Below are positions 9,674 to 13,026 of a stretch of 14,075 nucleotides of DNA, one piece after another. The stretch's first letter is position 1. Every line of letters starts with the position of its first letter. Made by a program: the position numbers and the translations under genes. The notes under the pieces were generated by a model. The model did not search any database. It saw only the letters and a list, made by a program, of their open reading frames with translations, and was not told the origin of the DNA. This stretch comes from a virus (taxonomy: Duplodnaviria > Heunggongvirae > Uroviricota > Caudoviricetes): the IMG/VR virus record IMGVR_UViG_2648501920_000010; one strand, 5' to 3'.

Positions 9674-9681
9674 GTCCATAA

Positions 9682-9913
9682 GAAAGCCCCTCCGGAGAGG
9701 GGCTAAAGCCGCGTATCTGTATCATCATGCACATGGTGCCGGGTGCCTCCCGGTGAGTTCAGCCCGGTGCCACTAAACCCGCGTCATTCTCGTTTTGATA
9801 ATCAGAGATTATACCGTCACCAGTCGCCCCTCCGCTCAGGGGGATTCACCATGCGAAATTTTTTTAACAAATGCCCAGTCTGACAGGCAACTGTCAACTT
9901 ACTGAATTGTGAG
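9682..9913. repeat. Copy A of a degenerate ~220-bp direct repeat
   Basis: Shares ordered blocks with copy B: gaaagcccctccggagaggggct; catggtgccgggtgcctcccggtga; gcccctccgc(t/a)cagggggattcaccatg; ttttaacaaa; ctgaattgtgag. Confidence 0.6.
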
Positions 9914-9948: not shown

Positions 9949-9977
9949 GTAAAAAGGCCCACCGGAGCGGATGGGCC
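9949..9977 (-). terminator. Intrinsic terminator-like hairpin on minus strand
   Basis: Plus strand aaaaaGGCCCA-ccggagcgga-TGGGCC; on the minus strand the 6-7 bp stem is followed by TTTTT. Confidence 0.45.
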
Positions 9978-10168
9978 TGGAAGGATAGCGGTCATGTGAT
10001 GCCGGTTTCCCGGTAACTCAGCACCGGTATCTGAGTCAACGTTTTCTCTACTGGGTCATTTCCGATACGCCCTGCCTGCTGACAGGCTTTCATCACATCT
10101 GAAAATATAGCACCCTGACTGATACTGTAGTACCTAAGGTTCCAGAAACTGTGATGTATCCGGCACAG

Positions 10169-10381
10169 AAAAGCCCCTCCGGAGAGGGGCTGGAGAGTGG
10201 CGCTATGTGCCATTGCATGGTGCCGGGTGCCTCCCGGTGAATTCAGTACCAGCACCTGAATCCGCGATTATCCCATATACCTACTCGCTGATTGCCCCTC
10301 CGCACAGGGGGATTCACCATGCCAGTTTCTTTTAACAAACTCCCCGCAAACCAGACAACAGTCAACCGCCTGAATTGTGAG
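10169..10381. repeat. Copy B of the degenerate ~220-bp direct repeat
   Basis: See copy A. Identical 20-bp hairpin agcccctccggagaggggct at 10172..10191 versus 9685..9704; the other blocks are in the same order with indels. Confidence 0.6.
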
Positions 10382-10425: not shown

Positions 10426-10502
10426 TGGCGCGTTGTACTGGATTCGAACCAGTGACCGATTGCTTAGAAGGCAATTGCTCTGTCCGGCTGAGCTAACAAC
10501 GC
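10426..10502 (-). tRNA. argO: tRNA-Arg (anticodon UCU)
   Basis: Hand-folded 77-nt cloverleaf GCGTTGTTAGCTCAGCCGGACAGAGCAATTGCCTTCTAAGCAATCGGTCACTGGTTCGAATCCAGTACAACGCGCCA: 7-bp acceptor stem, D arm GCTC/GAGC, anticodon loop CUUCUAA, canonical GGTTCGAATCC T arm, encoded CCA. Gene symbol by analogy with the Stx-phage tRNA cluster. Confidence 0.8.
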
Positions 10503-10515
10503 AGGATACAGATAA

Positions 10516-10593
10516 TGGACCGCCTTCGGGGACCCGAACTCCGCGCAACCAGCTTCGAAAGCTGGCGCTCTTTCCTGATGAGCTAATGGCGGT
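10516..10593 (-). tRNA. argN: tRNA-Arg-like (anticodon loop UUUCGAA, anticodon UCG), atypical
   Basis: Sequence CCGCCATTAGCTCATCAGGAAAGAGCGCCAGCTTTCGAAGCTGGTTGCGCGGAGTTCGGGTCCCCGAAGGCGGTCCA folds as a cloverleaf with a good anticodon arm (CCAGC/GCTGG) and D arm, but has one mismatch in the acceptor stem, one in the T stem, and a T loop TTCGGGT (G where A58 is expected). Boundaries +/- 2 nt. Gene symbol by position only. Confidence 0.5.
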
Positions 10594-10599
10594 ATGTGA

Positions 10600-10675
10600 T
10601 GGTGGCCCTTGCTGGATTTGAACCAGCGACCTGGCGATTATGAGTCGCTCGCTCTCACCACTGAGCTAAAGGGCC
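10600..10675 (-). tRNA. ileZ: tRNA-Ile2 type (anticodon CAU; could formally be Met)
   Basis: GGCCCTTTAGCTCAGTGGTGAGAGCGAGCGACTCATAATCGCCAGGTCGCTGGTTCAAATCCAGCAAGGGCCACCA: canonical cloverleaf, anticodon loop CUCAUAA, encoded CCA; closely resembles E. coli ileX/ileY-type tRNA from memory. Confidence 0.8.
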
Positions 10676-10724: not shown

Positions 10725-11774
10725 TCAAACGATTAAATCCTGAACTTCCCTGACTGTCTGCTCAAAACGTCCGGTCTCCAGTTCAACGCCAATCGCACGA
10801 CGCCCAAGCGCCAGTGCCGCTTTTACCGTTGAACCTGAGCCCATAAAAAAATCTGCAACCAGGTCACCCGGACGACTGCTTGCGCTGATTATCTGCTGCA
10901 GCATTTCTGCCGGTTTTTCGCACGGATGTTTCCCGGGATAGAACTGCACCGGTTTATGTGTCCACACATCCGTGTACGGCACCTGCGCCGTCACACCAAA
11001 ATACCGCCGCAGATGCTTATATTCACTCTGCAGCTCCACATACTGCCGGTTCAGTGACGTATACGTATCCACCAGCTGGTGGTGGGGCTTTTCCAGTTCA
11101 CCGCGCTGATGTTTCTCTTCTGCCACCCGGGCAAACAGCGACTGTAATTTCAGATAATCGCTTTCGTTCGGTAGCTGCCACTGACTGGCACTGAACCAGT
11201 GCGACACCATGTTTTTCTTTCCTGTGGCATCTGCAATCTGTTTTGCCGTTATCCCCAGGGCAGCGCGCGCATCACGAAAGTAAGAAATCAGCGGGGCCAT
11301 CACATGCTGTTTCAGTGCACTGCCCTTCGCCGCATACCCGGCATCTTTCGGACGATACGGCCCCTGATAATGTTCCGCGAACAGAATGCGCTCTGTGGCG
11401 GGGAAATACGCCCGCAGGCTTTCCTTGTTGCATCCGTTCCAGCGTCCGGACGGCTTCGCCCAGATAATATGGTTCAGCACACTGAAGCGTTCACGCATCA
11501 TGATTTCGATATCAGATGCCAGGCGATGACCACAGAACAGGTAAAGACTTCCGACAGGTTTCAGCACCCGCCAGAACTGCGCCAGACACTGGTCCAGCCA
11601 CTTCAGGTAATCATCGTCGCCCTTCCACTGGTTATCCCAGCCCTCAGGCTTCACTTTAAAGTACGGCGGGTCCGTGACTATCAGGTCAACAGAATTTTCG
11701 GGTAACGACCGGATAAATTCCAGGCAGTCGGCGTTGATTAACTCACAACTGGATATTTTTACAGTATTAAGCAT
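10725..11774 (-). CDS. Orphan DNA methyltransferase, beta-class (N6-adenine or N4-cytosine)
   Basis: 349 aa. Motif IV DPPY (LIVTDPPYF) near the N-terminus and AdoMet-binding motif I FxGxG (DFFMGSGST) near the C-terminus, the circular permutation order of beta-class amino-MTases. No restriction endonuclease candidate nearby. Weak SD. Confidence 0.85.
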   Translation of the reverse strand: MLNTVKISSCELINADCLEFIRSLPENSVDLIVTDPPYFKVKPEGWDNQWKGDDDYLKWLDQCLAQFWRVLKPVGSLYLFCGHRLASDIEIMMRERFSVLNHIIWAKPSGRWNGCNKESLRAYFPATERILFAEHYQGPYRPKDAGYAAKGSALKQHVMAPLISYFRDARAALGITAKQIADATGKKNMVSHWFSASQWQLPNESDYLKLQSLFARVAEEKHQRGELEKPHHQLVDTYTSLNRQYVELQSEYKHLRRYFGVTAQVPYTDVWTHKPVQFYPGKHPCEKPAEMLQQIISASSRPGDLVADFFMGSGSTVKAALALGRRAIGVELETGRFEQTVREVQDLIV

Positions 11775-11910
11775 GGATCATTAAGCCTGTCTCTGATAGG
11801 CTCATTCTGCTTTTGCGCAAAGCAGTGGGCCTGAGGTTTGCTTGTGAACCCAACGCATGAGCAGATGGCTGGTGGGTGCCCCTAACACCCACCAGCCGCC
11901 CATTTACCAC

Positions 11911-11938
11911 AAATAAAAAAGCCTTCAGGACTGAAGGC
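11911..11938 (-). terminator. Intrinsic terminator between the small ORF and the methyltransferase
   Basis: Minus strand gccttcagt-cc-tgaaggc followed by TTTTTTATTT; the hairpin overlaps the last codons of the upstream small ORF. Confidence 0.55.
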
Positions 11939-12122
11939 GTCTGTAACAACCGAACTGATAGTCTGCCAGACCCGCCATAACCAGCTGGGTCAGTATTAAC
12001 TGGCAGCGTTCGCGTGAAAGGTAAGTATTCTGCGCTATCTCCCCGACTGTCGCCGGTTCGGTAACGCTTAATTCATTAAACACCACTCTGGCGGTTTCTG
12101 TCATATCCTGCTGTTTTAGCAT
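11925..12122 (-). CDS. Small winged-helix-like protein, possibly FaeA/PapI-like regulator (65 aa from ATG 12122; track ORF extends to 12209)
   Basis: MLKQQDMTETARVVFNELSVTEPATVGEIAQNTYLSRERCQLILTQLVMAGLADYQFGCYRRLQS. The pattern x-hydrophobic-x-E-L ... T-(A/V)-x-E-I-A ... Y-x-(A/S)-R ... L-hydrophobic ... AG resembles the single winged-helix domain of PapI/FaeA-type regulators (remembered PapI: [41 protein letters not shown]). AAGGAA SD before the ATG at 12122. Assignment is pattern-level only. Confidence 0.35.
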   Translation of the reverse strand: MLKQQDMTETARVVFNELSVTEPATVGEIAQNTYLSRERCQLILTQLVMAGLADYQFGCYRRLQS

Positions 12123-12244
12123 GTCTTTTTCCTTTTTCCGGTTAACGTGACATACCAATAACTCTTGTCGAAAAAGCCAGCAAGCTGAAAGACCCGTATT
12201 CGCAACCACCAGCGTGTTTACTGTACTGACGCGATTTTGGGCAT

Positions 12245-12275
12245 AAAAAAAAACCGCCTGACGGCAGTTTTTTTT
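12245..12275 (-). terminator. tR'-like intrinsic terminator downstream of the putative Q gene
   Basis: A9-CCGCC-tgac-GGCAG-T8: near-perfect 13-nt inverted repeat. On the minus strand the GC stem is followed by a T9 run, ~60 nt after the putative Q stop. Confidence 0.55.
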
Positions 12276-12336
12276 CTTACTTTGCCATCGCGTACAAAAT
12301 CGGCAAAATATCAGATTTATACGAAACGTACGCTAT
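12276..12336 (-). promoter_or_regulatory. Candidate late promoter (pR'-equivalent) and qut region
   Basis: Positional inference: the interval between the putative Q stop and the tR'-like terminator contains TATAAA (-10-like) with a weak TCAATT 17 bp upstream on the minus strand. Not verified. Confidence 0.3.
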
Positions 12337-13026
12337 TTAATTGACTTTTGCAATATCTCGTCGTGAAAAAGTCGCTTTTTGTTGCGCTCTTATTTTCACG
12401 GTGCAAATCACAGATTCTCTATCGAGACTCTTAAAAATATCGCACATCTCACGCCAGTAGTTCGCATAATTATGGCTCCAGTTATCAGGCTTAACTCCAC
12501 ACAGTCTGGCAAGCTCCTGTCTCTGGTAGACCTCACACCCGGTAATCCATCCTCTGACATCCTGTGCCGCCAGCCAGATCAACTTCTTCACGCGCTCCTG
12601 CGTTTTCCCTGCAATTTTTCTGGTGCCGTACCGGGTTTTAAATTCATTCCACACCCACTGCGTTATCGCGATCTGATATTCCCAACAAATACTCCCGCTG
12701 TAACACCACAACAACCAGGCTTTATGATGTTCTTCAAGAGACAGAACAGCCCGCCGCCACGATGATGTCGAAAACTCAACCGGACTGACGAGAGGAATTG
12801 ACACCCCCTTCGCCAGCGATTGCTTTCCCGGGATTGGTGGATTATCCCGCGTTATCATTTTTCCAGTCACTTCATCGCGGTACCGGATTTTTTTACGCCT
12901 GTAACGCCCTGTATCAAACATGGCATTCTCCTGCCAGGCCTCAAGCTGCCCTTTTGTTGATCCACTCAAATCGGCGGTGGCAATCATGAGTTGCTCACGA
13001 ACAAACTGTAAATACTGGTTATTCAT
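12337..13026 (-). CDS. Putative late-gene antiterminator Q (assignment by synteny)
   Basis: 229 aa ORF directly downstream of rusA and upstream of a promoter/terminator pair and the tRNA cluster, the position Q occupies in lambdoid and Stx phages. I do not recognise clear sequence similarity to lambda Q; it may belong to another Q family (e.g. QuuQ/Q82-like). Confidence 0.4.
   Translation of the reverse strand: MNNQYLQFVREQLMIATADLSGSTKGQLEAWQENAMFDTGRYRRKKIRYRDEVTGKMITRDNPPIPGKQSLAKGVSIPLVSPVEFSTSSWRRAVLSLEEHHKAWLLWCYSGSICWEYQIAITQWVWNEFKTRYGTRKIAGKTQERVKKLIWLAAQDVRGWITGCEVYQRQELARLCGVKPDNWSHNYANYWREMCDIFKSLDRESVICTVKIRAQQKATFSRRDIAKVN

Follow-up and report, generated by a model that had tools for sequence, protein, structure and literature searches.

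An M.EcoGII-type methyltransferase with a conserved leader RNA and a small winged-helix protein in the late region of a lambdoid Escherichia coli prophage

M.EcoGII is an orphan DNA methyltransferase that methylates adenine in any sequence context, in double-stranded DNA, single-stranded DNA and RNA (Murray et al. 2018, PMC5778455). M.EcoGII and its twin M.EcoGI are prophage-borne in E. coli O104:H4 C227-11; neither is expressed in the lysogen, and constitutive expression of either enzyme is deleterious. M.EcoGII alone is fully active in vitro, and in vivo from a plasmid, and the authors proposed that the enzymes of this family serve to overcome host restriction (PMC5778455). For the ST131 ortholog M.EcoMV, no transcription was found by reverse-transcription PCR (PMC4659465). 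A review draws a parallel between M.EcoGII and the Mom protein of phage Mu (PMC12707154). M.EcoGII is a widely used reagent, in chromatin footprinting, in MadID and in tools for N6-methyladenine (m6A) in RNA, and its natural biology is almost unstudied. Here, a gene of the same type is described from a 14,075-nucleotide (nt) stretch of a Caudoviricetes virus (IMG/VR record IMGVR_UViG_2648501920_000010; "the window" denotes this whole stretch), together with the 65-amino-acid (aa) open reading frame (ORF) that precedes it and the structured leader RNA that lies between them.

All relevant genes are on the minus strand and make up the late region of a lambdoid E. coli prophage, with the small ORF and the methyltransferase gene (the cassette) immediately downstream of the antiterminator gene Q. 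The reading preferred here is that of a Q-dependent, multiply locked anti-restriction cassette of the lambdoid late operon, built on an M.EcoGII-type enzyme and with the winged-helix protein as an accessory regulator; its probability is put at roughly 0.6. An earlier note on this DNA had placed the two ORFs directly downstream of Q and had called the larger one an orphan beta-class methyltransferase, and the present analysis agrees on each of these points. The same note had proposed a methylation-based switch operated by a PapI/FaeA-like regulator, of which only a part stood.

The methyltransferase and the gene that travels with it

The methyltransferase has the same length as M.EcoGII (349 aa; PMC5778455) and is identical to it at 330 of 350 positions (~94%, full length), the reference being the M.EcoGII sequence in the supplement of the SUPREM paper (PMC11551740). 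Because this reference is machine-read supplement text, the two single-residue gaps in the comparison may be reading errors; most of the ~20 substitutions fall within residues 148-276. The motif DPPY (residues 35-38) precedes FxGxG (F-M-G-S-G, residues 310-314), which is the beta-class order, and both motifs are invariant across the methylase orthologs. The match to PF01555 scores 152.2 bits against a cutoff of 26.7 and covers profile positions 1-219 of 221. Relatives in the PDB are M.RsrI, CcrM, M.MboIIA and DpnA. The protein also matches the MTase_II models of PADLOC, and it scores far below the cutoffs of the specific NCBIfam equivalogs (PRK11524, CcrM). A standard, GATC-methylating Dam homologue was rejected, as the motif order is beta-class rather than alpha-class and the D12-class profile (PF02086) is absent from the Pfam matches. 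No restriction nuclease gene was found in the window or in the identical, annotated prophage region of E. coli strain CE10.

By its sequence, the enzyme is thus identified as an orphan ortholog of M.EcoGII/M.EcoGI, that is, as a predicted non-specific N6-adenine DNA methyltransferase, and with ~94% identity to M.EcoGII it belongs to an already known and characterised type. Non-specificity, toxicity and silence in lysogens would be expected of this allele by analogy with the orthologs for which they have been published. The homologue of phage 1720a-02, named in PMC5778455, is a nucleotide match at 94.8% identity here, and the same methylase family occurs in Stx phages. In the central, presumed target-recognition region, a weak HTH_3-like match at residues 167-195 covers ALGITAKQIADATGKKNMVSHWF (E = 0.031). 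M.EcoGIX was rejected as an identity for the enzyme, as it is encoded on a plasmid and has no relation to this locus.

Prophage cassettes of this kind are very common, and the locus adds another copy. The 2.1-kb stretch around it is 100% identical to many E. coli chromosomes, including that of CE10, where the annotation of the identical region reads Q, hypothetical protein, DNA methyltransferase and three tRNAs. Matches to this stretch were found in 3373 of 5426 complete E. coli genomes, at a median of two places per genome, and in 1736 of those genomes a single match spans 80% or more of the stretch. A further 299 phage records match, mostly Stx2 phages, in which stxAB comes after the tRNAs and the tRNA trio travels with the cassette. 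No stx was found within the window.

The 65-aa ORF is a genuine, conserved coding gene. Its pairwise differences number 9849, 7249 and 15049 at codon positions 1, 2 and 3, which fits a coding sequence, and the start is shared among homologues. A GTG-extended form of 94 aa, reaching position 12209, can also be read; the 65-aa start is taken as correct because M-L-K/N-Q-Q-D-M is common to homologues of other genera, whose extensions upstream of it are unrelated. The exact sequence of the small ORF is recorded on at least 1000 contigs.

When one genome per species was scanned, 35 loci came up, ranging from Escherichia to Proteus, Providencia, Erwinia and Plesiomonas. In 31 of them the small ORF is followed, on its own strand, by an M.EcoGII-like gene whose start lies 150-200 nt further downstream; of the four exceptions, one stops at a contig end, two are deletion remnants with the leader still in place, and one is a fragmented copy. 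Among viral contigs, the small ORF sits at a fixed offset in 76 of 76 loci that were found via the methylase and have enough flank; this methylase-profile search tells little of distant lineages because it returned only relatives of at least 94% identity. A pattern search with the leader DNA was more informative and gave 121 matches. The small ORF is present in 108 of the 117 evaluable ones (~92%), and the other nine contigs carry the leader and the methylase without it. The pair is therefore co-inherited across Enterobacterales, with strong synteny that is nonetheless not obligatory.

The nine contigs that lack the winged-helix ORF (L137, L164, L178, L190, L195, L206, L221, L230 and L238) encode methylases of 72-82% identity. 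Four of them have a different ORF directly upstream, ending in ...LVDTIGN or ...LVETITD, and L164 and L195 show a tR'-type terminator upstream and then no small ORF.

These nine loci count in favour of an explanation in which the small ORF is an independent passenger, a moron or late gene that serves, for example, host regulation or another anti-defence function and stays adjacent for want of a recombination breakpoint. The Q-to-lysis stretch of lambdoid late regions is a known cargo site, with stx a few hundred bases downstream in related phages, and in E. coli types the ORF has its own terminator. The ORF is also preceded by its own conserved 38-nt motif, which is kept from E. coli to Proteus and Plesiomonas and is absent where the ORF is absent. 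An own sigma-70 promoter at this motif was nevertheless rejected, since the scan called none there in three lineages. Moreover, a free passenger would have to account for adjacency, orientation and spacing that persist from Escherichia to Proteus, Providencia and Plesiomonas while the small protein diverges to 43-55% identity, and for an ORF that was never found away from the methylase leader, the methylase-less cases being deletion remnants only. An independent passenger is thus considered unlikely.

The methylase leader RNA

Compared with shuffled sequence, the 150-nt spacer that separates the two ORFs is much better folded (z = -4.4, with 0 of 200 shuffles as good), and the terminator and palindrome-rich leader that the earlier note had described there are both present. 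Most of the spacer belongs to a conserved structured leader with three hairpins, A, B and C (Table 1), whose inner palindrome is CTGCTTTGCGCAAAAGCAG. The mean column identity of the leader is 78%, which exceeds the conservation of the small protein. Across 30 species-level leaders, 90.2% of cells are paired, against 27-38% in slid controls; double changes occur in ten pairs (43 cells), and none of 500 shuffles reaches the covariation score. Similarly, 53 distinct leaders aligned to the covariance model are 88.9% paired, against 29-41%, with double changes in nine pairs (51 cells). In 887 kb, the model (R1) matches exactly once for each methylase gene, on the strand of that gene, and nowhere else. 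Rfam gave no minus-strand match to 11772-11924 at E <= 1; its only match was on the opposite strand and at chance level (P26, E = 0.21).

The leader ends in an invariant CUGAUC(U/C)AUG, without a canonical Shine-Dalgarno sequence. The UGAUC of this element could pair with GAUCA near the 3' end of 16S rRNA and so form an atypical ribosome-binding element. The same element contains a GATC, a Dam site, at window positions 11775-11780 (minus strand), immediately 5' of the methylase ATG. Two other candidates were tried for this region and rejected: a leader peptide (short ORF MGGWWVL), which is not conserved and in which the nucleotide changes preserve pairing rather than codons, and an ATCAG/CTGAT hairpin across the methylase start, for which there is no covariation support.

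RNAalifold proposed two further helices, P1 and P2, which cannot form together with hairpin B and show 99.3% pairing over the whole set of sequences. They vary by one-sided, wobble-compatible changes only, with no compensatory double changes. The exclusion of hairpin B by P1/P2 is suggestive of two alternative RNA states. Tentatively, the leader may be a cis-regulatory RNA for M.EcoGII-type methylases that works as a two-state translational switch, with a long P1/P2/A stem opposed to hairpin B and the choice set by the winged-helix protein, by a small molecule (S-adenosylmethionine, SAM, or S-adenosylhomocysteine, SAH) or by the enzyme's own RNA-methylating activity. If so, the cassette would hold a toxic, promiscuous nucleic-acid methylase under a new safety lock that acts post-transcriptionally.

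A more specific version takes Mu com-mom as its model: the winged-helix protein would bind and remodel the leader RNA, free the methylase start codon and thus act as a dedicated translational activator. The layout is indeed shared, with a small ORF, a structured leader and a toxic DNA-modifying enzyme silent in lysogens (PMC12707154), and the covarying hairpins, the lack of a canonical Shine-Dalgarno sequence and the exclusion of hairpin B by the nearly fully paired P1/P2 are compatible with such remodelling of a two-state RNA. On the protein side, the RNA-hairpin-binding winged-helix domains of SelB are among the fold matches, and the helix 3 motif CQLILTQL, invariant across the small-protein family, stands alongside invariant leader positions. 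This explanation sits poorly with an acidic to neutral protein, with the nine contigs that retain leader and methylase without the small ORF, and with the one-sided changes in P1/P2. Homology to Com is also lacking: the 65-aa protein has only two cysteines (C40 and C59), shows no zinc-finger pattern and is encoded by an ORF that does not overlap that of the methylase. A dedicated activator of this kind is regarded as quite unlikely.

The small winged-helix protein

An AlphaFold2 model of the 65-aa protein (pLDDT 86) confidently predicts a minimal winged helix with the order H-H-H-beta-hairpin, which corresponds to the H1-(S1)-H2-H3-beta-hairpin wing topology of the winged helix-turn-helix superfamily. 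With ~87 clusters at 50% identity among 1.84 billion representatives, the family is narrow, and it is specific to phages of Enterobacterales. The window protein falls below every Pfam cutoff: TrmB (PF01978) scores 18.1 against 25.6 bits (E = 0.0024), DprA_WH (PF17782) 14.4 against 22.9 bits, and MarR_2 is also sub-threshold. When 25 diverse family members were scanned at E <= 10, 18 matched DprA_WH (best 1.3e-8) and 13 matched TrmB (best 2.4e-4), and the Pfam families Dimerisation and HTH_65 were also among the matches. Two homologues carry a precomputed PF17782 assignment.

Other resources added little to this placement. A sequence search of the PDB with the small ORF or the family profile gave no significant match, no NCBIfam model matches the small ORF, and PADLOC returned a chance-level match only. 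The top Foldseek matches are N-terminal winged-helix dimerisation domains of the SAM-dependent methyltransferases RedM, DsyB, PigF and SibL. The fold matches are generic, and the closest sequence families are DprA_WH, TrmB and MarR. Literature searches found no work on the small ORF or on the methylase leader.

The Foldseek matches, together with Dimerisation and HTH_65, raise the question of a protein partner of the methylase, which could restrain the enzyme, as an inhibitor or an antitoxin-like brake, or serve it as a subunit for targeting or dimerisation. An acidic small protein encoded upstream of a toxic enzyme (PMC5778455) would suit such a partner. In addition, beta-class methylases are thought to act as dimers (PMC7544214) and DprA, whose winged-helix domain is the closest sequence family, is reported to stimulate methyltransferase activity in H. 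pylori (PMC4489622). However, M.EcoGII is fully active alone (PMC5778455) and the small ORF is missing from some phages, and a partner role is accordingly judged improbable.

The earlier note had likened the small ORF to PapI/FaeA regulators. The winged-helix fold holds in the model, and the family assignment fails: Pfam gives no FaeA (PF04703) match for the small ORF at E <= 1, and the 25 families listed for the 25 diverse members at E <= 10 do not include FaeA, whereas the PapI control scores 110 bits on the FaeA profile (6.5e-32). An hhalign comparison of the family profile with PapI aligns helices 1-3 at 61% probability and 18% identity, a generic winged helix-turn-helix similarity, and the nearest solved structures include neither PapI nor PefI. 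A PapI/FaeA-type factor that reads the methylation states left by its neighbour, as a phase-variation-like epigenetic switch in the late operon, is therefore highly improbable and already largely refuted by the family tests: both proteins are single-domain winged helices of roughly 65-77 aa, the two genes are co-inherited, and some prokaryotic winged-helix domains are reported to sense m6A (PMC11037411), but the setting is a phage late operon with no fimbrial operon or Lrp-type context, and the ortholog of the enzyme methylates any context and is silent in lysogens, which leaves no defined, site-specific heritable pattern to read. The interpretation in the earlier note was thus partly right, in that the enzyme is an orphan beta-class methylase, its neighbour has a winged-helix fold and the genes are linked across Enterobacterales, while its distinctive claim, a PapI-like switch that reads methylation, is not supported.

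Working of the cassette and comparison with known systems

The order of control elements around the two genes is given in Table 1. Silence, toxicity and non-specificity of the orthologs, combined with the layout Q, tR', small ORF, terminator, leader and methylase, point to a Q-dependent cassette that would be silent in the lysogen.

Table 1. Positions of the cassette genes and of the control elements around them in the window.
Feature	Position	Strand	Evidence and remarks
Antiterminator Q	12337..13026	-	PF06323 (Phage_antiter_Q), E = 1.4e-83; named Q in the identical CE10 region
Candidate late promoter pR', TTGCAA-17 nt-TACGTT	12325..12353	-	Putative; read from the sequence; overlaps the end of Q
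tR'-type intrinsic terminator, stem GCCGTCAGGCGG + T9 run	12244..12265 (scan 12265-12253)	-	Terminator scan
38-nt motif, CTTGCTG-N10-11-CAGAGTTAYMTGTRTGTCAC	12147..12184	-	Conservation; 25-60 nt before the small-ORF start
65-aa ORF	11925..12122	-	ORF; phrog_331 at 1e-37; NCBI name 'TrmB family transcriptional regulator'
Second intrinsic terminator, GCCTTCAGTCCTGAAGGC + T6	11911..11938 (scan 11938-11921)	-	Terminator scan; straddles the small-ORF stop codon
Structured leader, 138 nt	11772..11909	-	Alignments A4/A6; covariance model R1, 122.9 bits
Leader hairpin A	~11867-11897	-	
Leader hairpin B	~11837-11865	-	
Leader hairpin C	~11799-11831	-	
Methyltransferase, 349 aa	10725..11774	-	PF01555; by sequence, ortholog of M.EcoGII/M.EcoGI
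Three phage tRNA genes (ileZ-type CAT, Arg-TCG, Arg-TCT)	10426..10675	-	ARAGORN, Rfam, CE10 and Stx phage annotation

The candidate pR' was not called by a simple sigma-70 scan; it aligns with a TTGCAA-17-CATATT element that precedes the same terminator in other loci. The tR'-type terminator, a strong one, is predicted to terminate on both strands (A9-stem-T8), and all aligned loci have an equivalent 100-160 nt ahead of the small ORF. Similarity to the Stx-phage records begins at this terminator. In Rfam, 12204-12280 also matches STnc370, on the plus strand and below threshold (39.4 bits, gathering score 54, E = 0.012).

In the lysogen, the methylase would be kept off behind the constitutive tR' terminator, with the second terminator, at the end of the small ORF, as a further lock in E. 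coli-type phages. The conserved three-hairpin leader of the methylase mRNA, with no canonical ribosome-binding site, may add a post-transcriptional brake or timer. After induction, Q-modified RNA polymerase would read through the terminators, and only such polymerase would reach the methylase gene; the enzyme could then hypermethylate the replicating phage DNA before packaging and so provide broad restriction protection in the next host. The winged-helix protein probably serves the cassette as an accessory regulator; it might recognise the 38-nt motif or the methylase leader and thereby time or limit methylase expression. A cassette-specific regulator is favoured because of the invariant helix 3 and the two conserved cis elements, and an essential role is disfavoured because the protein is acidic and absent from nine phages.

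Several observations weigh against this Q-dependent, multiply locked cassette. At the RNA level, mismatches break up hairpin B in most enteric sequences (69.8-75.8% paired), and because the sequences belong to few clades, the number of independent compensatory events is limited. Proteus and Providencia types lack the second terminator, a comparable hairpin being present in Enterobacteriaceae-type loci. The small protein is acidic to neutral (isoelectric point 4.4-6.8 in 23 of 30 homologues), and Proteus-type members have no basic wing residues, which is atypical for a nucleic-acid-binding regulator. The nine viral contigs with leader and methylase alone show that the winged-helix protein is dispensable for the cassette in some phages. 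Finally, the non-specificity is extrapolated from a 94%-identical enzyme that differs at 20 of 350 positions, mostly in the central region.

The wider neighbourhood is that of a lambdoid late region. Along the minus strand, a DUF968/HNH protein and RusA precede Q, the small ORF, the methyltransferase and the three tRNA genes; these are followed by STnc100-type small RNA (sRNA) copies, a SASA esterase, holin, lysozyme, Rz, an IS3 fragment and the terminase genes. The first tRNA (10600-10675, minus strand) is called Met (CAT) by ARAGORN but ileZ (tRNA-Ile, CAT anticodon) in genome annotations, and with the two Arg tRNAs (TCG and TCT) the trio is annotated ileZ, argN, argO in Stx phage records. 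The prophage sRNA STnc100 has strong copies at 9674-9883 and 10161-10351 and a degenerate copy at 9949-10122, all on the minus strand (165, 136 and 30 bits), between the tRNA genes and the SASA esterase, which is the slot of stxAB in related Stx phages. According to a 2026 preprint, STnc100 is related to PasD sRNAs, and Pas sRNAs are associated with esterase genes. The IS3-family transposase orfA (3944-4324, plus strand), with an ALIL frameshift pseudoknot (75.9 bits), separates the lysis genes from the small terminase subunit, an insertion shared with CE10.

Identification of the locus as M.EcoGII-type removes the epigenetic-switch reading and shifts the residual interest to the leader RNA and the winged-helix protein that accompany a much-used enzyme. 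The candidate control elements that travel with the enzyme are testable: a pair of terminators, a leader RNA that covaries and has no canonical ribosome-binding site, and the dedicated winged-helix protein. Should they indeed control the methylase, they would explain how a toxic, sequence-independent methylase can be carried safely in a prophage, and would also show how Stx and other lambdoid phages gain broad restriction protection in new hosts.

The closest described systems are M.EcoGII and M.EcoGI, which share with the window enzyme the length, the beta-class motif order, ~94% identity, a prophage location and orphan status. The window allele differs from them by its ~20 substitutions, concentrated in the central residues given above, and PMC5778455 treats the M.EcoGII enzyme only, not the upstream small ORF or the leader. 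Mu com-mom offers an analogy, that of a late-expressed, toxic modification enzyme, silent in the lysogen and preceded by a small ORF and a structured mRNA leader, which the window cassette would resemble in these respects. There is no sequence or fold relationship, however: Com is a zinc-finger protein that binds a stem-loop of the leader and whose gene overlaps mom, whereas the window protein is a winged helix encoded 150 nt upstream, and the window enzyme is a SAM methyltransferase and not Mom.

PapI, FaeA and PefI (PF04703) are likewise small, single-domain winged-helix proteins of similar size, with a weak alignment over helices 1-3. They act in a fimbrial Lrp/Dam GATC context, in contrast to the phage late operon of the window, where the partner enzyme is not Dam and is predicted to lack site specificity. 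Compared with the C-terminal winged helix of DprA (PF17782) and with TrmB and MarR, the window protein stands alone as a 65-aa domain and carries neither an effector nor a Rossmann domain. The controller (C) proteins of restriction-modification systems are Xre-type helix-turn-helix dimers that control a restriction gene, while the window has a winged helix and no restriction gene; common to both arrangements is a small, DNA-binding-type protein encoded just upstream of a modification gene, where it plausibly times expression.

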